DNA from: Salarias fasciatus
Taxonomy: Eukaryota
Assembly (NCBI RefSeq): GCF_902148845.1
Contig: NC_043762.1
Coordinates: forward strand, 28,907,760-28,962,759
DNA length: 55,000 nt
Direction: 5' to 3'
The notes beneath the pieces were generated by a model that saw only the letters and a list, made by a program, of their open reading frames with translations, was not told the origin of the DNA and made no database searches. Shown here piece by piece: positions 12,072-55,000 of this stretch (within the stretch, counting starts at the first letter, position 1; the number at the start of each line of letters is the position of its first letter). Position numbers and translations under genes: made by a program.

Positions 12072-12857
<786 letters not shown>

Positions 12858-45246: not shown

Positions 45247-46219
45247 TCAGACGTACTCCCTGTTCTCATACTCCTTCTTGATGGCCTTCTTGATGCGGTC
45301 GATCTCGTCCTCGCTGGAGCTGTCGCGGTGGTCGTGGTCGTCTTTCTCCTTCTTCTCCTCCTCCTGGTTGGCGTTCCCGGCCGGAGCGTCCTCGGCCCTG
45401 CCCTCCGGCGTGGTGGACTGCAGCTCCTCCCGGATGGTGTTCAGCTCCACCAGGCCGTCGTGCAGCTGCGTCGCCACCTCCCGGATTTTGGCGGCAAACT
45501 CCGACTTGGCGCCTTTCTTGAGGATTTTGGAATCCTTGGCCACGAAGTAGATGTCCATGCCCACGAAGAGTCCGGTGAGCACGCCGGTGGCCATGCTGGC
45601 GATCTGCACCGCCCTGGCCGCCGTGCTGCCCGCCACGTTGGCGATCTGCACCACGCGCATGATCTCGTTGGCGTTGATGAGGATGGCCTTGCCCGCCATG
45701 GCGCCGTCCTCGTAGAAGCTGCTGGTGAGCGCGGGGAAGTCCTGGTTGTAGGCGTGGTTCTTCATCTTCATCAGGTCGAAGCGCCGCAGGTTCTCGATGC
45801 CTTGCTTGATGAACTTCAGGCACTTGTTGAGGTCGGCGATCTTCTCCTGGTAGTCCTCCACGATCTTCTCCACCTTCTTGCGGTCCATGGAGTTGTTGAC
45901 CTGGTTGGAGATGCCGGCGCCCGCCGACGTCAGGCCGCCCGCCGTGGCGATGCCCAGCCCCACCGCCGTCACGATGAGGGAGGTTCCCATGGTGACGGGC
46001 GCCAGGGCCAGGCCGGTGATGGTGGCCACGCCCCCGATGGCGCTGGTGGACCCCCCGGTGATCTGGGCGATCTTGGTGTTCTTGTTGAACTTGTCGAGTC
46101 CGTCTGCGATGGCGTTGAGGTCGATGACGTGCTGCCACAGCGACTCGGCGCGCTCCGAGAACAGCTTGTTGAAGACGCGGATGCCTTTCTGCACCTTGTC
46201 CGCCGTGACGGCGAAGGCC
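45247..46219 (-). CDS. APOL-B terminal coding exon: complete APOL domain without an intron (...AFAVTADKVQKGIRVFNKLFSERAESLWQHVIDLNAIADGLDKFNKNTKIAQITGGSTSAIGGVATITGLALAPVTMGTSLIVTAVGLGIATAGGLTSAGAGISNQVNNSMDRKKVEKIVEDYQEKIADLNKCLKFIKQGIENLRRFDLMKMKNHAYNQDFPALTSSFYEDGAMAGKAILINANEIMRVVQIANVAGSTAARAVQIASMATGVLTGLFVGMDIYFVAKDSKILKKGAKSEFAAKIREVATQLHDGLVELNTIREELQSTTPEGRAEDAPAGNANQEEEKKEKDDHDHRDSSSEDEIDRIKKAIKKEYENREYV stop)
   Basis: Acceptor cctcttcctcgcag| (phase 2). Hallmark APOL membrane-hairpin and GAKSExAxxxxExAxxL motifs. Stop TGA at 45247-45249. Confidence 0.8.
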
Positions 46220-46372: not shown

Positions 46373-46424
46373 TTAGCTTCCTCTTTTTCCGTCAGGTCTT
46401 CATCCTCTGGCCGGTCCTCCCATG
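46373..46424 (-). CDS. APOL-B coding exon (PWEDRPEDEDLTEKEEA)
   Basis: Acceptor cctttgtcag|, donor AA|gtaagt. 52 nt, phase 1 in and phase 2 out. Same size and phase as the APOL-A 52-nt exon. Confidence 0.55.
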
Positions 46425-46796
46425 CTGACAAAGGAAACGAGGGATTTTATTTTGAAACACTGCATAAACTGATGGGTGAAAACTATGTGGACACATCACA
46501 CAACAGGTTTATTAATCTGCCTCTGAAAGTTGTGACACTAATCCGTACTAATCCATACGACTGCAGAAGCATTTTATCTTCAGGCTTAATTTTCTCATCT
46601 TGCTGCAATCACTGTTTGTTATTATGATGTAAAACAGTTTATCTTATATTACTGTATGGATGCTGAGTAGCAGACGCAGTAGTGATCCTGTTTCTTTACT
46701 ATATATTTTTTTTTAATAAGAAATGCCACATTAGGATATATTGTTTAGAAATATTCAAATTCAAACCATAATTAACTCAATTAATCCGATACTTAC

Positions 46797-46836
46797 GCTC
46801 CACAGTGTTCCACCAGTCCATGAGATCCTCAGCATC
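46797..46836 (-). CDS. APOL-B coding exon (DAEDLMDWWNTVE)
   Basis: Acceptor gtgtttcag|, donor C|gtaagt. 40 nt. Paralogous to APOL-A ENNELMEWWKSVK. Confidence 0.55.
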
Positions 46837-46896
46837 CTGAAACACACCATCAGATTTGTACGTTTCTGTTCCTTTGTTGAATTGAATCAGTGGACT

Positions 46897-46898
46897 AC

Positions 46899-46957
<59 letters not shown>

Positions 46958-46960
46958 CCC
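46897..46960 (+). repeat. (AT)n followed by a poly-T/poly-C tract in the APOL-B intron
   Basis: atatatat...tttttttttttttttttttcccc. Confidence 0.9.
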
Positions 46961-46985
46961 AAAACGATCTGCTGTAAAGACCAAC

Positions 46986-47069
46986 CTGCGTGTCCTGGGG
47001 GGTTTCAGGGTTTCCAGGGTCACGATATTCCTCCAGCTGGTCGAACAAGGATCTGTTTGCCCCTTCGCT
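46986..47069 (-). CDS. APOL-B coding exon (SEGANRSLFDQLEEYRDPGNPETPQDTQ)
   Basis: Acceptor gttgtctcag|, donor CAG|gttggt. 84 nt, phase 0. No ATG in the exon, and an in-frame stop lies just upstream of the acceptor, so this is an internal exon. Confidence 0.5.
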
Positions 47070-47379
47070 CTGAGACAACACAAGTCATCCATCTTTAGAA
47101 TTCAATAAAAACAACTGGATGAACAGTTTTTCAGTGGTGTGTGTGGGAAAAAGTAAAATCAACCAAATCTGTCGTCACGTTTCAGTTGTAAGTGTTTTTT
47201 CGCTCCACTTTTTCTGGTTTATACTCAGATAAATAGGGGGAAGTTGGAGCAGGAGCCAGTCCGGCTGTGTTGATGTCTTTCTGCTGTTTTTTGCAGAAGT
47301 AAAAGAGACCACAGCGTTGCAGGGAGCACATTCAAAAGGGAAGCAGAGAAACAAGTCCGGGCACATTGCAGCCTAATCT

Positions 47380-47660
47380 CAGCTCATCTTCCACGGCGAA
47401 GGCCGAGCAGGAGCCCCGGCCGGCGGGGCGGGGCGGGGCGGGCGCGGTGGGGTTCGTGTCGGCAGGGGAAAGGAAACAAACGCAAAAACAAGAAACACAT
47501 GTTGGCGAGGGCGAGAGAGAGAGAGAGCGGGGCCGGACGGCCTCCAGACAAACTCTGTCGATGACTGGGAGAATGTGGGCGGAGCAGCACGGGTCAGGTG
47601 ACCGAGACGGAGCTTCGGCAACAAACAACCACAACAAGCACAGACTCAGTCGGCCTGGGA
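47380..47660 (-). promoter_or_regulatory. GC/CpG-rich block (GGGGCGGGGCGGGGCGGGCGCGG GC boxes) between array-2 and the APOL-B exons: candidate internal or alternative promoter
   Basis: High CpG density. Sp1-like GC boxes at 47415-47445. GAGA tract at 47505-47530. Confidence 0.3.
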
Positions 47661-47737
47661 AACACGCCGACACCAAGGGCTGGCTTGAGTTTACATAATC
47701 ACAGCAGAAACGCCGTCACGGCTGTTTCCTTTATTAC

Positions 47738-47785
47738 CTCTTCGTTCCCTGCAGCGCCGTGCTTCGTCCTCTGCATGACTTTACC
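47738..47785 (-). CDS. APOL-B exon with the first in-frame ATG (GKV-MQRTKHGAAGNEE). ATG around 47776
   Basis: Acceptor ctgctttcag|GGTAAAGTCATG; donor GAG|gtaata. 48 nt, phase 0. Confidence 0.4.
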
Positions 47786-48621: not shown

Positions 48622-48672
48622 CTTGACGCGAGGCATGAAGGGGTTGTGCTTCTTGTATTTCTTGACTTTGGG
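48622..48672 (-). CDS. Array-2 microexon 23, basic NPF (PKVKKYKKHNPFMPRVK)
   Basis: Acceptor tctctttctag|, donor AAG|gtaaca. 51 nt. Confidence 0.5.
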
Positions 48673-48824
48673 CTAGAAAGAGAGATCGACATCAATACAC
48701 CGCTCCCTGGAGGAGGTGGTTCAGGTTCACACACTCTCTGCTGCTTTTCAGTCAGAAACCGTGGTTCTGTTCAGAAACTTTCGTTCATTCAACAGACACG
48801 AGGAACAGGACTGATCAGAAGGAC

Positions 48825-48917
48825 CTTTGGTGTTTTCTCCTGGCCTTCCTCTTCTTTCTTTTCCTCTTTTGATGAAGACTCATCCTCATCTTTCAGGCCT
48901 TCATCGTCAGAGGCAGC
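48825..48917 (-). CDS. Array-2 microexon 22, acidic (AASDDEGLKDEDESSSKEEKKEEEGQEKTPK)
   Basis: Acceptor tctgtgttttcag|, donor AAG|gtcctt (weak). 93 nt. Confidence 0.4.
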
Positions 48918-49013
48918 CTGAAAACACAGAGTCACCATGACAGTGAAATAAAGAAACGATAACGTGTTTCATTTGGACGGCCGTGTCTGTCAGAACTTAG
49001 CGGGCGTTCTTTA

Positions 49014-49061
49014 CCTTGTCTGCAGAACGCGGCATGAAAGGATTCGGCTTCTTGTGTTTCT
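49014..49061 (-). CDS. Array-2 microexon 21, basic NPF (KKHKKPNPFMPRSADK)
   Basis: Acceptor ccccacag|, donor AAG|gtaaag. 48 nt. Confidence 0.5.
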
Positions 49062-49624
49062 TCTGTGGGGAGAATTTGGCACAATCGCAAAGCGTTACGT
49101 GACACGAAGAGCAACAACTGGAAGAGCAGCATTTTATTCCAGGCGTTGGTGATTTGTCTTTAAACGGAGGAACAGTATCGGGGCTTCAGCAGTCACAGAA
49201 AACGGTCATCAGCCACTTCCCCAGAAACAGAAAACACTCTCCGATAAGCACAAAACGCACTGTTTCCACTGACATTTGACTGTTTTATATACATATATTA
49301 AAGGAAGTTTTTCTCTGTGATTGTATCTGCAGGTGTCAGGTGTCTTTTGCATGTTCACGCCATGAAATAACCGATAAGGAGGAAGCAGGAACTAGAAAAG
49401 TTAGATCCTGGCAGAGGAGCTTTCCTCTGCCTGCTGCAGTCGGGCAGAGGTCAGAGCATTAAACAAACAAAACAAAAACAAGTTCAGTGTTCTCAAAAAC
49501 ACACAGAAATAAATACAAACAGATGATCTTAATTAATTTATCAAAAGAATGGCAAAATTGCTTTTTATGCATTTAGGAAAATACATGTTAAGTTCTACCT
49601 ATCCTGCCTGATCATCATGACGAA

Positions 49625-49714
49625 GCGTACTTACTGCTGTGTTCTCTGGAATGTTCATCTCTTCACCGTTTTCAGCAGCAGCAGCAGACTCGTCTCCCTC
49701 AGTGCCTTCATCCC
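49625..49714 (-). CDS. Array-2 microexon 20, acidic (NQSGDEGTEGDESAAAAENGEEMNIPENTA)
   Basis: Acceptor catgtgccgcag|, donor GCA|gtaagt. 90 nt. Confidence 0.45.
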
Positions 49715-49866
49715 CGGACTGGTTCTGCGGCACATGGAGCTGATCAGTTCATTATTTTCGTCTCATAGGAAAGAAAAACACACTAATGCTTGATATTTGA
49801 AAGCTAATACTCTCCACTGACATTCTATATTATCTTAACTTGTATTCTGTGCACATGGAAACATAC

Positions 49867-49920
49867 CTGGTGTCTGGTTCTCTGCTTCTGTAGATCACGA
49901 GTTCTCGTTCTGCTCATCTC
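49867..49920 (-). CDS. Array-2 microexon 19, basic (EMSRTRTRDLQKQRTRHQ)
   Basis: Acceptor ggttttatttcag|, donor CAG|gtatgt. 54 nt. Confidence 0.45.
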
Positions 49921-50000
49921 CTGAAATAAAACCACAGATGGTATTTAAACGACCGTGGTCTACAGCAGACCTTCCAGATCCAGAGGCCGAAATAAACCAC

Positions 50001-50081
50001 CTGCTCAGACGGTCTGGCTGGGATTTCAGGAGTCTCCTCAGGACTTTCTTGTCTCTGTCGGGGGATCACGTCTTTGCTTTC
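50001..50081 (-). CDS. Array-2 microexon 18 (ESKDVIPRQRQESPEETPEIPARPSEQ)
   Basis: Acceptor cattttctgtag|, donor CAG|gtggtt. 81 nt. Confidence 0.4.
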
Positions 50082-50185
50082 CTACAGAAAATGAAAGTAA
50101 ATCCATGTGACGAAGCCTGTTTCATGTCGGCAAAGCTCGACTTCACAAAATCAACTCTGTGAACAAAGGCAGCTGAGAAGGGTAC

Positions 50186-50245
50186 CTTATCGTACTGAGG
50201 TCGTCTTGATTTGTCTCTGTCGTCTGCGGACGTCCTCTTCATCTC
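50186..50245 (-). CDS. Array-2 microexon 17 (EMKRTSADDRDKSRRPQYDK)
   Basis: Acceptor ccgtgttccag|, donor AAG|gtaccc. 60 nt. Confidence 0.45.
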
Positions 50246-50324
50246 CTGGAACACGGCGAAACAGAGTCAGACCGAGCAGAATCCACCAGGGACTCAGGAG
50301 GACCAGATCTGACTGCAGGCTAAC

Positions 50325-50402
50325 CTTCTCTGCTGGTCTGGGAGGGACCCAAGACGCTCCACGTCTGTCCGGGTTCTCTGGCTGGCTCGTGTTGCTCTTG
50401 AC
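50325..50402 (-). CDS. Array-2 microexon 16 (VKSNTSQPENPDRRGASWVPPRPAEK)
   Basis: Acceptor cttgtcag|, donor AAG|gttagc. 78 nt. Flanked by (CA)n and (TG)n microsatellites in the introns. Confidence 0.4.
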
Positions 50403-50410
50403 CTGACAAG

Positions 50411-50451
<41 letters not shown>

Positions 50452-50525
50452 AAACGAAGAAAGTCAGTCAGTGTACTGGAGCAGGCTGGAGGTAAGGAGG
50501 ATGTGGTGAAGATACAGCTAATCAG

Positions 50526-50528
<3 letters not shown>

Positions 50529-50577
<49 letters not shown>
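50529..50577 (+). repeat. (TG)n microsatellite in the array-2 intron
   Basis: tgtgtgtg run. A (CA)n run at 50411-50452 lies nearby. Confidence 0.95.
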
Positions 50578-50615
50578 TCGCGGGTGACTCAGAGGGATGC
50601 AGTAAATAGACTCAC

Positions 50616-50681
50616 CGGCTTTGGCTTCTCTTTCACTTGTTGCTCGCTGTCCTTGAGGCTCTCTCCGTCCTCCGTCTCTTT
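50616..50681 (-). CDS. Array-2 microexon 15, acidic (KETEDGESLKDSEQQVKEKPKP)
   Basis: Acceptor tcctttattcag|, donor CCG|gtgagt. 66 nt. Confidence 0.45.
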
Positions 50682-51024
50682 CTGAATAAAGGACAGGAAT
50701 TCCTTTTTAAATTGCATCGATCAAAATAGACCTCTTTAATAACATCTATTAAAAAACACGTCATTGGAAAGACTACTGGAGTTCCTGAATGCGGCTCCCT
50801 TCTTCTTCCCATGTCATTAACTCTAAATAAATCTGTATGGTACAATAATCATATTGAGAAGTGAGAAAAAAAAAAGAACACTTTGCAACACAGCAGTCAC
50901 CCACACTGGTGAAATGGTTAGTAGACGTGTGACAACGACTCAAAGCCTGATCACATGCAGCCGAACCACGACCCCCACGACCCCCACCACCACCACCACC
51001 CGACACGTCTGACACCATATTTAC

Positions 51025-51078
51025 TTTATTGGCAGAACGGAAAGGGTTCAGTTTGGACATGGCTCCGGCCACGGCGCT
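51025..51078 (-). CDS. Array-2 microexon 14, NPF (SAVAGAMSKLNPFRSANK)
   Basis: Acceptor tgttcctttcag|, donor AAA|gtaaat. 54 nt. Confidence 0.5.
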
Positions 51079-51526
51079 CTGAAAGGAACACACACCCGCA
51101 CAGCGTTCAGGTGGATTTCAGAACATTTCAGTCCGTCCTCGGTCGGAGAGCCACACACCGACCCAGCGATGAATTAAATCATGGAGCGGTGACCATGAAA
51201 ACACAGCGCTAATGTCATCCAACAGCAGACTAACAAAACATCGCTCATCTCCTCAGCAGGTAAATATTTAGGAAGGTTGTTTATTGCAAAAAATGTCGTT
51301 TATTTCAGAACATGAGAGCTTGGTTTATTCAAGATCTTCATGTTTTTTGACATATTTTGTGATTTTTTTTTTTAATGATTTTATAAACTATTGACTGGAT
51401 CAATAGAACTCAGAAGGTGTTTTGTGTATTAAAAGTGATTTCAGAATACAAACGGAGTCTTCAGCACAAAGAGAATTGGCTGAATGTCAAACTGAGTGAA
51501 ACAGGAAGTAGGGACTCTGGAAGCAC

Positions 51527-51595
51527 CTGTTTGTGAGCCGATGGTTTCTCGCTGGCAGCTGGATCCTCCTCGTCTGAGCTCATCTGCTTCTCATG
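51527..51595 (-). CDS. Array-2 microexon 13, acidic (HEKQMSSDEEDPAASEKPSAHKQ)
   Basis: Acceptor gttttcttggcag|, donor CAG|gtgctt. 69 nt. Confidence 0.45.
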
Positions 51596-51723
51596 CTGCC
51601 AAGAAAACACAGAACACAGAAACTCTTCATCAAAAGCACATAAATTCAGCTTTTAAAGTCATTTTACGGAAGCTGCAGTCTGTCCTCCACTAGAGTCAGC
51701 CAGCAGGAAGCGCAGCAGCTTAC

Positions 51724-51777
51724 TTTGTGGACGCCTCGAAAGGGATTGAGCTTGGTCATGGCTCCTGCCAGCTTGTT
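51724..51777 (-). CDS. Array-2 microexon 12, NPF (NKLAGAMTKLNPFRGVHK)
   Basis: Acceptor cccgactcag|, donor AAA|gtaagc. 54 nt. Paralogous to microexon 14. Confidence 0.5.
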
Positions 51778-51861
51778 CTGAGTCGGGACGAAAGAGGAAC
51801 AAAACATTAACCAACAGCAGTATCAATGACATCTCTAAACTACGAGACATTAAATAGGAAC

Positions 51862-51927
51862 CTGTTTAGGACCAGTCTGGTTGTCTTCGCTGTCTGATGC
51901 CTCCTCGTCAGAGTTCGGGCTCTTTTC
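51862..51927 (-). CDS. Array-2 microexon 11, acidic (EKSPNSDEEASDSEDNQTGPKQ)
   Basis: Acceptor ccttcctctgcag|, donor CAG|gttcct. 66 nt. Confidence 0.45.
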
Positions 51928-51998
51928 CTGCAGAGGAAGGACACTTTACGTAAATACAGAACAAAATAAACGGAATTTGGCTGTATTTCACCTCTCAC

Positions 51999-52046
51999 CT
52001 TCTTGTCGGTGTGAAATGTACTCTTCATCATGGCAGTGAACCCAAA
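51999..52046 (-). CDS. Array-2 microexon 10 (FGFTAMMKSTFHTDKK)
   Basis: Acceptor gtcttgttccag|, donor AAG|gtgaga. 48 nt. Confidence 0.45.
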
Positions 52047-52126: not shown

Positions 52127-52180
52127 CCTGCTTAGTTTTGGGCTTCTCTGCAGTGGCGTCCTCTGAGTTTTCACTCTTCT
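52127..52180 (-). CDS. Array-2 microexon 9, acidic (EKSENSEDATAEKPKTKQ)
   Basis: Acceptor ctttcctcag|, donor CAG|gttggt. 54 nt. Confidence 0.45.
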
Positions 52181-52260
52181 CCTGAGGAAAGACAAATGAA
52201 CACATGGTCAATATATCCGCTCCTGAAAAGCACATCGGAGGAAACGAGCTTGACCCCTGA

Positions 52261-52326
52261 CCTTTGACGGCTTCTCCGTGTGACCTTTACCCTCTGCGGA
52301 CGGTTCTGCGTCCATGGACAAGTCGT
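52261..52326 (-). CDS. Array-2 microexon 8, acidic (DDLSMDAEPSAEGKGHTEKPSK)
   Basis: Acceptor tctccctgtaaag|, donor AAG|gtcagg. 66 nt. Confidence 0.4.
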
Positions 52327-53359
52327 CCTTTACAGGGAGAAACAGCAAAAAGTCACAAAATGAACGAGGAAAAGAGCTTCCAGAAAAAATAACCATTTTC
52401 AGAGGAAGCAAAAACGATCACATTCAAGAGCAGAATGAAAGAATCGTCCTGAAGCAGATCTGAGGCGAGATGTGCAACGAGACACACGACAAAACTGTCG
52501 CTAATAAAACTAACATGTTTAGATCAACCGTCTTATTCTGTGGCAATAACACAGATTATAATTAAACTTGTATCATAGTTATAAGTTACAAACTAAACAC
52601 AGAACTAATGTTAATTAAAACTGTTAAGATTGAAAGGATGTATTTAGAAACTGGAGGTTCAGCATCGCTAATATAACTTGATCACTCTTGAATCTGTAAA
52701 CCTCTGCTGCTTCAGGGCGGAGAATTATTATCGTCACATGATTTGAGCCGTAACTGAGGTTTTGCTAATAACAACAACAACAACAACAACAACAATAATA
52801 GTAACTCTCTGAAGAGGGTAAAGTCTGTTTCCTAAGAGTCTCCCATTGCTCTGAACTCCACTCCAACATTTCGCTCTCATGAATGAAAACCTGCTGAAAG
52901 TAGAAAAGTGAAGTAAAAGCTGTGCTGAAGGAGTTAAATCAGACACGGAGAGAGAAACAAACTGCTTCAGACCAGTGAGCTGTGTCACTGTCCGACTGAA
53001 CCGGGCAGGATGCCGAGCCTTTAGATCTCAGCTGATAGTTTAAAGACGGGAGTCACTGCCGTCACATCCAGAATGTCGTCTCTGTGTAAAACATTCAAGC
53101 CGTCAGCGATAAGAAGACCTTTGTATGTCTGAGTGTTCTGTTACTTTCCAACGCCTCACATGACAATGCGTCACAATTTGTTTGACCACACCTAAACACA
53201 AAGCCAACACACCCACGACCGTACAGATACGATTTGTATCTGAACAGCGTCGAACCAGCACCGGCGTCCAAAAAATAAAAAGATCTCTGTTCTTTAAGGG
53301 CTGCATTCATTTCACTGTAGCTTTTTCACCATATTTAAAAGTAGTTCCTTCAGACGTAC

Positions 53360-53419
53360 CTGAGACTGAGACCTGGCAGCCTTCTTTCTGAACACCCCAC
53401 TGAAGAGCCCTCCTTTCTC
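53360..53419 (-). CDS. Array-2 microexon 7, type B (EKGGLFSGVFRKKAARSQSQ)
   Basis: Acceptor tgtgttctcag|, donor CAG|gtacgt. 60 nt. Confidence 0.55.
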
Positions 53420-53508
53420 CTGAGAACACAGGAAACCTGCTGCTGTCACGACCTCGTTCACAGCTGAGGCTGGAGGCTGGATGGAGCTACAGCAAAGATC
53501 AGACTCAC

Positions 53509-53574
53509 CTTCGACGGGTTCTCGTCCAGGTTTTCGCTGCTGCCGGAGAGCTTGCCGTCTGCAGACAAATCCTC
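53509..53574 (-). CDS. Array-2 microexon 6, type A (EDLSADGKLSGSSENLDENPSK)
   Basis: Acceptor ctcgtctgcag|, donor AAG|gtgagt. 66 nt. Confidence 0.55.
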
Positions 53575-53664
53575 CTGCAGACGAGAATCGAGCCAGGATA
53601 ACCGATCAGAGCGGATATAAACAGAGGCAGACGGCGATACGGCGGCGGCGGCGTCAGTACATGC

Positions 53665-53727
53665 CTGAGACTGCGTCCTGTGCTTGTGGCCCTTTTTAAA
53701 CATCCCAGAGAACATCCCTCCCGACTC
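53665..53727 (-). CDS. Array-2 microexon 5, type B (ESGGMFSGMFKKGHKHRTQSQ), with a non-canonical GC donor
   Basis: Acceptor tggcccagcag|. The donor position reads CAG|gcatgt where sister exons have CAG|gt(a/g)xgt. 63 nt. Confidence 0.4.
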
Positions 53728-53815
53728 CTGCTGGGCCACAAGTCACATTAAACACCGGCCGAGAGCAGAACAGGAACAGCGACGACCGAAAGACTTCACA
53801 TCTCTGCGGATGTAC

Positions 53816-53884
53816 CTTAGCGTTGCTGTTGACAGCCAGGCCGTCGCTGCTGCCGGAGAGCTCGCCGTCTGCAGACAGGTCGTC
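53816..53884 (-). CDS. Array-2 microexon 4, type A (DDLSADGELSGSSDGLAVNSNAK)
   Basis: Acceptor gtggcctccag|, donor AAG|gtacat. 69 nt. Confidence 0.55.
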
Positions 53885-53968
53885 CTGGAGGCCACAAACA
53901 GGCTCAAACACGTCAACATGCAGGGAAACACGGCGAGATGAGAAATCAGCAGCGCGCTAAACACACAC

Positions 53969-54040
53969 CTGAGACTGTGTCCTCACTCCTAAACGCTTTG
54001 GTGGCTTCTTGAAGAGTCCGCTGAACACCCCGCCCGACTC
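53969..54040 (-). CDS. Array-2 microexon 3, type B (ESGGVFSGLFKKPPKRLGVRTQSQ)
   Basis: Acceptor tggactccag|, donor CAG|gtgtgt. 72 nt. Confidence 0.55.
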
Positions 54041-54159
54041 CTGGAGTCCAGACACAACCAAAACAAAACCGTCATTCAGGAAGCTTCCTCCGTGGTGGAG
54101 GATCACAGAGAACGTTTCCATCCTGCAGCAACACCAGTAAAAGCTTCTACAGAGCTCAC

Positions 54160-54216
54160 CTTCGCGTTGAGGTTGTCAGCGCTGCCGGAAAGCTCGCTGG
54201 GAGCAGATAAATCCTC
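54160..54216 (-). CDS. Array-2 microexon 2, type A (EDLSAPSELSGSADNLNAK)
   Basis: Acceptor ttgttgttttccag|, donor AAG|gtgagc. 57 nt. Confidence 0.55.
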
Positions 54217-54312
54217 CTGGAAAACAACAAAACAGGTTTTTAAATTCGACCGTTTGAAAACAGAAAGTCAGATCATTTTAAAGAAAAGAAAAGAGACGGA
54301 AGAGACGGATAC

Positions 54313-54384
54313 CTGAGACTGAGCCTGGGCTGCAGAGAGCTTCGGAGACTTTTTAAACATCCCACTGAACACGCCTCCAGATTC
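54313..54384 (-). CDS. Array-2 microexon 1 as seen (type B: ESGGVFSGMFKKSPKLSAAQAQSQ). The array probably continues upstream, beyond the window
   Basis: Acceptor tttgatctgcag|, donor CAG|gtatcc. 72 nt. Confidence 0.55.
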
Positions 54385-54557: not shown

Positions 54558-54588
<31 letters not shown>

Positions 54589-54589
54589 G

Positions 54590-54621
<32 letters not shown>

Positions 54622-54640
54622 CACACACACACAAAAGTGT
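54541..54640 (+). repeat. Compound (TC)n/(CA)n microsatellite
   Basis: tctctctctcacacacacacacacacagacacacacacacac... Confidence 0.95.
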
Positions 54641-54921
54641 CAATTGAAACACTGAGCCGCTGCCTCCACAGCTACTGTCGGTCACATCCTGCAGACACAT
54701 TTCCACCATGAAACACACACTTCACATAAGATTTCCATTACATTTAACCATTTAAATATTTTTTATTGCAATATTTGCATTAATATTTACAAGTAAACGC
54801 ATTGAATAATGAAAATCATTGCTCATGTAGTTCAGTTTCCACGGCATTTTTTCCATCTTACAGGTACTGAGATATTTAAATGTTTTCATGTGCAATATAA
54901 ATGTCATTACTGGTTAATAAT

Positions 54922-54927
<6 letters not shown>

Positions 54928-54998
<71 letters not shown>

Positions 54999-55000
54999 TA
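54928..55000 (+). repeat. (AAT)n microsatellite running to the window edge
   Basis: aataataataat... Confidence 0.95.

Follow-up and report, generated by a model that had tools for sequence, protein, structure and literature searches.

The window analysed here, a 55,000-nucleotide stretch of the Salarias fasciatus genome (contig NC_043762.1, forward-strand positions 28,907,760 to 28,962,759), carries on its minus strand a teleost 'apolipoprotein L1-like' (APOL) gene, and the interval 48622 to 52046, which concerns us most, is part of the coding region of that gene. At least 28 exons can be chained into it, from beyond 54384 down to 45247, with the exon that encodes the ApoL domain last. Twenty-five small phase-0 exons lie between 54384 and 46986, and the reading frame is continuous from them into the ApoL exon (boundaries placed by exact matching). 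In array order from 54384 to 46986 the net charges of the encoded peptides read +-+-+-+--+-+-+-++-+-+-++-, a near-perfect alternation, and the resulting N-terminal tail is rich in E, K, S, D, G and P. The array exceeds the interval on both sides, reaching upstream to at least 54384 and past the end of the window, and downstream into the ApoL exon.

Within the interval, four exons of the array encode the tripeptide Asn-Pro-Phe (NPF), two in a context that we call type A and two in another that we call type B (Table 1). Each is bounded by AG and GT and has a length that is a multiple of three. They occupy the 'basic' slot of the alternation, with a net charge of +3 to +7 and two to five hydrophobic residues. 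An earlier note on this DNA had quoted six peptides from the NPF exons and the acidic exons beside them, and six-frame translation locates all six on the minus strand where that note placed them. Its other descriptions need some adjustment. It spoke of microexons, a term usually limited to exons of up to about 27-30 nucleotides, or 51 nucleotides or less for some authors; at 48-54 nucleotides these are better called small frame-preserving exons, at or above the usual limits. It also had an acidic exon following every NPF exon, which is true of three of the four, the last being followed by the exon GKVMQRTKHGAAGNEE with a net charge of +1. Finally, it saw the basic-NPF/acidic pair as duplicated. 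A duplicated unit does exist, but for type B (KKxKxHNPFMPR) the order is the reverse, since in species with two to four copies (homologues P0012, P0008 and P0010) the repeated unit consists of an acidic exon and then an NPF exon.

Table 1. Coding exons of the NPF-bearing APOL gene, in the direction of transcription
Feature	Positions	Strand	Properties and evidence
Upstream array, basic/hydrophobic and acidic exons	52128..54384	-	four ESGGxFSGxFKK...QSQ exons alternating with [DE]DLSxDGELSGSSxNL; two further acidic exons
Exon FGFTAMMKSTFHTDKK and acidic exon EKSPNSDEEASDSEDNQTGPKQ	51862..52046 (52046-51999 and 51927-51862)	-	upstream end of the interval; cDNA-matched
Type-A NPF exon 1, NKLAGAMTKLNPFRGVHK	51724..51777	-	54 nt, phase 0; AG/GT bounds; cDNA L001 block 1310-1508
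Acidic Ser/Asp/Glu exon, HEKQMSSDEEDPAASEKPSAHKQ	51527..51595	-	net -3; cDNA block 1509-1580
Type-A NPF exon 2, SAVAGAMSKLNPFRSANK	51025..51078	-	54 nt, phase 0; AG/GT bounds; cDNA block 1588-1634
Mixed/acidic exon, KETEDGESLKDSEQQVKEKPKP	50616..50681	-	net -2; cDNA-matched
Five phase-0 exons	50402-50325, 50245-50186, 50081-50001, 49920-49867, 49724-49635	-	one cDNA block each
Type-B NPF exon 1, KKHKKPNPFMPRSADK	49015..49062	-	48 nt, phase 0; net +5; cDNA block 2069-2118
Acidic exon, AASDDEGLKDEDESSSKEEKKEEEGQEKTPK	48825..48917	-	net -7; with type-B NPF exon 2 forms a unit repeated 1-4 times in other species
Type-B NPF exon 2, PKVKKYKKHNPFMPRVK	48622..48672	-	51 nt, phase 0; net +7; cDNA block 2194-2250, 96.5% identity
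Linker exons, last NPF exon to ApoL exon	46373..47785	-	frame continuity; cDNA blocks
Linker exon GKVMQRTKHGAAGNEE	47785-47738	-	
Linker exon SEGANRSLFDQLEEYRDPGNPETPQDTQ	47069-46986	-	starts SEGANRSLFDQLEEYR
Linker exon DAEDLMDWWNTVE	46836-46797	-	
Linker exon (P)WEDRPEDEDLTEKEEA	46424-46373	-	
Terminal coding exon	45247..46219	-	973 nt; ApoL domain (putative Gly/Ala/Thr-rich hydrophobic hairpin) and stop codon; Pfam; cDNA

The exon structure is matched by a complementary DNA (cDNA). The best match to the NPF-bearing portion of the conceptual protein (P0001) derives from a 3926-nucleotide Logan contig, L001, assembled from run SRR28040515 of a related fish species. Aligned to the window, this contig falls into successive blocks that correspond to the predicted exons without exception; the four NPF exons are among them, and so is the ApoL exon, which matches with 87% nucleotide identity over 978 nucleotides. 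Because the contig is colinear with all of the predicted exons, it represents a spliced transcript of the related species; the possibility raised by the earlier note, that the NPF segments might not be spliced in transcripts, is answered by a contig that spans all four of them. The contig continues past the end of the window with several additional repeat exons and the true N-terminus (MDRYDDLDLDLECEEG...), which was seen nowhere else.

Annotation also points to variation in how the array is spliced. In Hypomesus, the only difference between isoforms X1 and X3 (P0074 and P0075) is an 18-residue block, NVVVGAMSKLNPFRSAPK, which is the orthologue of the type-A exon at 51025..51078. At least one type-A NPF exon is thus annotated as a cassette exon, the isoform models being automated predictions. 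The phase-0 architecture would permit skipping of every exon of the array. The contig itself retains the 84-nucleotide intron 51861-51778 (within 1310-1508), which adds a stop codon and divides the contig's open reading frame (ORF) in two; either processing of this transcript was incomplete or the retention is regulated. One upstream exon, ESGGMFSGMFKKGHKHRTQSQ (53665-53727, minus strand), has GC rather than GT at its 3' side (cag|gcatgt), apparently as part of a GC-AG intron, and this exon is present in the cDNA of the related species.

The tripeptide is specifically conserved among fish orthologues. To avoid selecting for the motif itself, slots in the homologues were anchored on the flanks only and the tripeptide was left free. 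NPF fills 56 of 61 type-B slots (polybasic...xxx...[MT][PASLH]) and 20 of 22 type-A slots (AGAMSK-x-xxx), and the remainder differ by single substitutions (SPF, TPF, NNF, DPS, NLF, NIF). The most conserved NPF exon is the one nearest to the APOL domain, type-B exon 2: nearly every teleost homologue has it, and its spacing from a conserved SLFDQLEDFR segment is constant at about 30 residues. With one sequence per genus, the residues of this exon are N in 28/29, P in 29/29, F in 29/29 and M in 29/29, a count that omits two mis-anchored cichlid rows, both of which contain KKKKRHNPFMPDVK. An alignment (A2) in which NPFM is invariant was not used as evidence, because its segments had been picked with 'NPFM' and the invariance is circular.

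At the nucleotide level the codons are free to change. Among 19 exon instances from five sources (the window, the cDNA, and genomic orthologues of Limanda, Diretmus and Boleophthalmus), asparagine is encoded by AAT (13) or AAC (6), proline by CCC (8), CCG (6), CCT (4) or CCA (1), and phenylalanine by TTC (14) or TTT (5). Synonymous change around a fixed peptide implies selection on the peptide and not on the RNA. The drift through the motif that the earlier note had named as the outcome fatal to its proposal is not seen; what is seen is slot occupancy, synonymous codons and a pan-teleost spread. For the 571-residue N-terminal region, composition predicts 0.04 NPFs where four are found, and a count of four was never reached in 2000 shuffles, although this count overstates independence, since the four exons form two pairs of paralogous exons and the independent events are fewer than four. 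Taken together, these results give good support to the view that NPF is a short linear motif maintained here by selection at the level of the protein.

Pooling the homologues reveals three classes of NPF exon. Class A has the consensus xAGAMSKL-NPF-[RK]xAxK (for example VAGAMSKLNPFRSANK) and class B the consensus KVKKPK[KR]H-NPF-[ML]P[RQH]VK (for example KVKKPKRHNPFMPRVK), each with two copies in the window species, while class C, GxxGKIL[KR]-NPF-xS[ST]AQ (for example GKILKNPFTSSAQ), occurs in many other teleosts. Their flanks are unrelated, and beyond NPF they have in common only a basic residue at position -1 or -2 from it. At the position where a class-C exon (GGVAAKILKNPFTSSAQ-like) would be expected, 52261-52182, the window species has only an intron of 80 nucleotides; many teleosts, Elopomorpha and Clupeiformes among them, do have the exon there. 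Its absence from both the window species and the cDNA of the related species indicates a lineage-specific loss of one NPF. Type-A copies also decay (KPNLF, KLNPL, KLNLF, KLISF, KTKPF), and the other copy usually retains its NPF, which is the pattern expected for redundant multivalent motifs.

In the sample of taxa that the retrieved proteins provide, the module occurs in Elopomorpha, Clupeiformes, Siluriformes, Osmeriformes, Gadiformes and acanthomorphs. Four NPFs are present in the halosaur Aldrovandia affinis (Elopomorpha) and five in the shad Alosa, while the catfishes Neoarius and Silurus have the distal NPF only; further carriers include Hypomesus, Lota, pipefishes, dragonets and many percomorphs. 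The distal type-B exon is the one present in the catfish, shad, smelt and halosaur homologues alike. Only 25 of 1.84 billion representative proteins matched a profile built from the juxta-APOL region; those checked were all from fish, and no non-teleost protein was among the 25. A search with the repeat array likewise returned teleost proteins only, under miscellaneous automated names and without characterised relatives.

Several homologues bear on how the array varies. The canonical repeat exon of many species (homologues P0018, P0023, P0029 and others) is GGVFSGMFKKSPKPFGARTQSQ, which contains KPF, and its equivalent in Xiphophorus reads ...GAIFKNPFGARAPSQ; the Xiphophorus form suggests that NPF can arise from canonical repeat exons. 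In the EHD literature KPF, GPF and DPF are described as weaker EH-binding variants. In Lota lota (P0060, CAL8278845.1) an NPF array of the type described here is joined through a ...GLMEWWSTVE exon to the ApoL domain and long tail of a paralogous gene described below. Either the annotation has run tandem paralogues together, by read-through or as a chimera, or Gadiformes have undergone a real rearrangement here.

The NPF segments are fused to an APOL, as the earlier note had entertained, by a single reading frame that runs into the terminal exon. Residues 578-832 of the conceptual protein match Pfam PF05461 (ApoL) over profile positions 43-297 of 298 (E=1.7e-36; 126.6 bits against a cutoff of 25.9), which places it in the family. 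The hallmark of APOLs is a flexible double hydrophobic hairpin helix with transmembrane potential (PMC11726835), and the corresponding sequence, ITGGSTSAIGGVATITGLALAPVTMGTSLIVTAVGLGIATAGGLTSAGAG, is present and almost invariant, in a part that the AlphaFold2 (AF2) model gives with low confidence. The fusion is also seen in other fish: with the NPF-bearing portion by itself as the query, 53 fish proteins were found. Most are named 'apolipoprotein L1', and in nearly all of the 53 the homologous N-terminal region, at 38-50% identity, is fused to PF05461.

The N-terminal tail probably lacks stable structure, judging from composition and from the AF2 model of P0001, which has no secondary structure in residues 1-297 at a predicted local distance difference test score (pLDDT) of 30-45. 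The whole model is weak, with a mean pLDDT of 42, and we read it as a coarse indicator of disorder only. The homologues begin with MDRYD.LDL.LECDGG and show no signal-like hydrophobic stretch, and in zebrafish, too, the protein reportedly has no secretory domain (PMC4492502). The likely topology is thus a cytosolic tail with the putative hairpin in a membrane.

Between the last NPF exon and the ApoL exon, the linker holds two further near-invariant motifs, SLFDQLE[ED][FY]R at 46797-46836 and DLM[DE]WWNTVE, with an invariant WW, at 46986-47069 (minus strand). They coincide with the first predicted helices of the AF2 model (SLFDQLEEY and DLMDWWNTVE), and in an alignment of 54 sequences the linker residues F, L, L, M, W, W and V are near-invariant. 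WW and FW are known from class II EH-binding peptides (PMC3570524). The strict pattern for AP-2 beta2-appendage ligands, [DE]x1-2 F xx [FL] xxx R, has no match in the tail; a relaxed FxxLxxxR has one, SLFDQLEEYR, against 0.04 expected, and is a lead only. These linker motifs could be further docking sites.

Some other features of the gene and its surroundings deserve mention. The five exons at 49635..50402 include a ...VPPRPxEEEMK... segment that is kept in homologues and a strongly acidic exon with a net charge of -9. Microsatellites of the (AC)n, (TG)n, (CA)n, (TAA)n and (AT)n kinds lie in introns at 50412-50452, 50527-50576, 54569-54633, 54915-55000 and 46899-46938, the first two flanking the intron between exons 50681-50616 and 50402-50325. 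A GC- and CpG-rich block at 47380-47600 (ccgccccgccccgccccgccggccgg...) lies inside the intron between exons 47785-47738 and 47069-46986, and might be an internal promoter for a short isoform without the NPF array.

A paralogous APOL gene, gene 1 ('array-1'), lies on the same strand from about 36219 to 26414. It has approximately 15 pairs of EKGGLFSGxFKK basic and ...ELSASSENLSE... acidic exons leading into its own ApoL exon, which ends in a long low-complexity tail of PEPR repeats, poly-Gly and poly-Glu. No NPF occurs in the array-1 frames, and local alignment with the NPF-bearing gene (gene 2) finds no equivalent of it; in the juxta-APOL region the two genes have only ELMEWW in common (ELMEWWKSV in gene 1). 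On the plus strand, an exon-like ORF at 12105-12803 encodes an RNA recognition motif (Pfam RRM_1, 49.6 bits), resembles hnRNP C or RALY and belongs to a neighbouring gene.

What might a conserved, multivalent NPF tail do? All EH domains bind NPF, and proteins with several NPFs are typical EH partners (PMC13282721; PMC3570524). The motifs described here have the sequence features of class I EH ligands, in that the tripeptide is present in multiple copies and conserved, and the predicted disorder suggests that they are probably accessible. We therefore hypothesize that the NPF tail docks EH-domain proteins and would in this way link the APOL membrane hairpin to the endocytic and recycling machinery, while exon skipping and exon copy number would set the number of NPFs and hence the valency. 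Such a tail would fit the current view that APOLs, built around a flexible transmembrane hairpin, regulate the fission, fusion and trafficking of membranes (PMC11726835; PMC10937811). Judged from the peptide sequences, multivalent, low-affinity EH docking seems to us the most likely mechanism, and we give it about an even chance of being correct. The fuller proposal is more tentative: teleosts would have an APOL hairpin protein connected directly to the network of EH-domain proteins (Eps15, intersectin, REPS, possibly EHD) by a multivalent NPF tail subject to alternative splicing. Of this we would sooner expect some part to fail than the whole to hold.

As to the partner, the earlier note had argued that NPF with acidic residues after it fits EHD1-4. 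The C-terminal EH domains of these proteins do select NPF directly trailed by acidic residues, as in NPFEEEEED of MICAL-L1 (PMC13282721; PMC4398442; PMC3570524), but none of the four NPFs here has two or more acidic residues at +1 to +3. Those positions are R-G-V, R-S-A, M-P-R and M-P-R, and acidic clusters begin only 6-19 residues past NPF, mostly in the next exon. An EHD1-4-selective subclass of ligand was rejected on this ground. Because the residues directly after NPF are basic, a partner of the Eps15, Eps15R, intersectin or REPS type would be favoured over EHD1-4.

Several observations weigh against EH docking. The basic flanks miss the best-characterised rule of selectivity in this domain family, the acidic flank of EHD ligands. 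The conserved blocks, about 15 residues in type A and the whole 17-residue exon in type B, exceed the EH core, which suggests extra or different constraints. No other classical endocytic motif accompanies NPF, as searches of the tail for the clathrin box, DP[FW], FxDxF, WxxF-acidic, YxxPhi and acidic di-leucine gave no matches (the clathrin, AP-2 and SH3 patterns used in this work serve as leads only). Gene 1 has a basic/acidic array without NPF, so the general function of such an array needs no NPF. In addition, the 'disordered' state of the tail is read from composition and a weak AF2 model (mean pLDDT 42), and the isoform models behind variable valency are automated predictions.

Some of these observations would also fit if the NPF exons were variants of the array's general basic/hydrophobic membrane-binding peptide, of the GGxFSGMFKK type. 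The peptides would then bind acidic phospholipids electrostatically with F, M or L inserting in the bilayer, binding would be switched by phosphorylation of the adjacent acidic Ser-rich exons, and NPF would act as a turn or helix cap and hydrophobic anchor, with no part in docking other proteins. Such a membrane switch would account for the charge and hydrophobicity of the NPF exons and their place in the basic slot, for conserved blocks longer than the EH core, and for a paralogue whose array lacks NPF; intermediate forms in other species also bridge the two kinds of exon, for example PSGFGAIFKNPFGARAPSQ and GGVFSGMFKKSPKPFGARTQSQ. However, a lipid-binding role should tolerate changes of N to S, T or K and of F to L, M or W, whereas N, P and F hardly vary in any of the three flank contexts, and the ordinary GGxFSGMFKK exons do without NPF altogether. 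We consider it unlikely as the explanation of the motif, while recognizing that membrane binding and EH docking are not mutually exclusive roles.

Another possibility is that the type-B exons (K-[KR]-H-N-P-F-M-P-R) are class I ligands of SH3 domains, with the pattern [RK]xxPxxP (ELM LIG_SH3_1), in which case NPF would only be part of a PxxP core. Both type-B exons of the window match this pattern and K or R stands at -2 from N in 30 of 31 species rows, but two matches against 0.45 expected is not a significant enrichment (P about 0.075), the second proline is replaced (by A, L, S, T or H) in 12 of 71 unique type-B contexts that retain NPF, and NPF is conserved equally well in types A and C, which contain just one proline; we regard this as quite improbable. 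The same polybasic stretch (KVKKPKRH) could instead be a classical nuclear localisation signal, or another charge-based signal, with NPF incidental to it. K[KR]x[KR] does match in both type-B exons, where the lysine positions are highly conserved, but the matches are not above the expectation from composition (3 against 1.9), the conservation of NPF in types A and C, which have no polybasic run, would go unexplained, and a hairpin-anchored membrane protein would be an unlikely importin cargo, so that we give this idea very little weight. Least probable of all, in our estimation, is that no peptide-level function exists and that NPF is explained by constraint on the RNA or has survived by chance since the exons were duplicated. 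It is true that strong splicing signals within the exon are often required when exons are small, and that the four NPFs stem from two exon duplications and not from four independent events. Against this, synonymous variants occur at each of the three NPF codons with no change in the amino acids, three classes of unrelated nucleotide context carry the tripeptide, and it persists from Elopomorpha to acanthomorphs in a tail that otherwise diverges.

APOLs are medically important, through the kidney-risk variants of human APOL1 and through trypanosome lysis, and their basic cellular role is still debated. A conserved multivalent NPF module on a fish APOL offers a concrete and cheaply testable hypothesis for coupling APOLs to the endocytic network. 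If the tail does engage EH proteins, it would be the first motif-level link between the apolipoproteins L and the endocytic and recycling machinery, and would suggest that the ancestral job of APOLs was vesicle trafficking and not pore-mediated killing. It would also mean that fish 'apol1', as used in modelling kidney disease, may have a trafficking adaptor function that is absent from human APOL1. Even without EH binding, the NPF exons are a well-documented case of a short motif conserved across teleosts in a fast-evolving, exon-shuffled tail.

The exons as such are not a discovery of this work, since public annotation already includes models of orthologous genes. What is new is a candidate NPF-bearing APOL, well supported as a conserved motif and speculative as to its partner. 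Our literature search found no paper joining apolipoprotein L with NPF motifs and none with the repeat peptide FSGMFKK, and the APOL review that we searched for this makes no mention of fish. Work on zebrafish apol1 in the kidney defined the gene as a 2.6-kb locus without the tail, giving a short domain-only model (PMC4492502); teleost 'apol1' genes can encode far longer proteins than this.

The alternation of basic and acidic Ser-rich segments from repeated exons recalls Nopp140/dao-5, treacle and DMP1, names that automated annotation has carried over to the fish proteins from low-complexity similarity. There is no detectable homology to these proteins, and the fish proteins, unlike them, end in an ApoL domain. 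A likeness at the level of the peptide is found in EHD2, whose internal loop KPFRKLNPF contains K-L-N-P-F, identical to the core of type A (...SKLNPFR...). The EHD2 loop has been proposed to bind the EH domains of neighbouring dimers without an acidic flank (PMC4398442). The likeness covers five residues in an unrelated protein and context, and may be coincidental.

In overall design the fish tail resembles the multi-NPF EH ligands (epsin, Rabenosyn-5, Rab11-FIP2, MICAL-L1, syndapins, EHBP1 and Numb), which place several NPFs, conserved as short motifs, in a predicted unstructured region of a membrane-attached protein (PMC13282721; PMC3570524). It differs from them in its basic flanks (NPF-R, NPF-MPR), where partners of EHD1 such as MICAL-L1 have acidic ones, in its conserved blocks of 15-17 residues, in the absence of other classical endocytic motifs, and in that its status as an EH ligand is read from sequence. 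With the mammalian intracellular APOLs (APOL2, APOL3, APOL6 and the intracellular isoforms of APOL1) the fish protein shares the ApoL Pfam domain with its putative hydrophobic hairpin. Most members of that group have no signal peptide, and roles in membrane fission, fusion and vesicle trafficking have been described for them (PMC11726835; PMC10937811). In the APOL reviews and zebrafish apol1 papers that we searched, neither a multi-exon basic/acidic N-terminal tail nor NPF is described; the tail was found in teleosts only.

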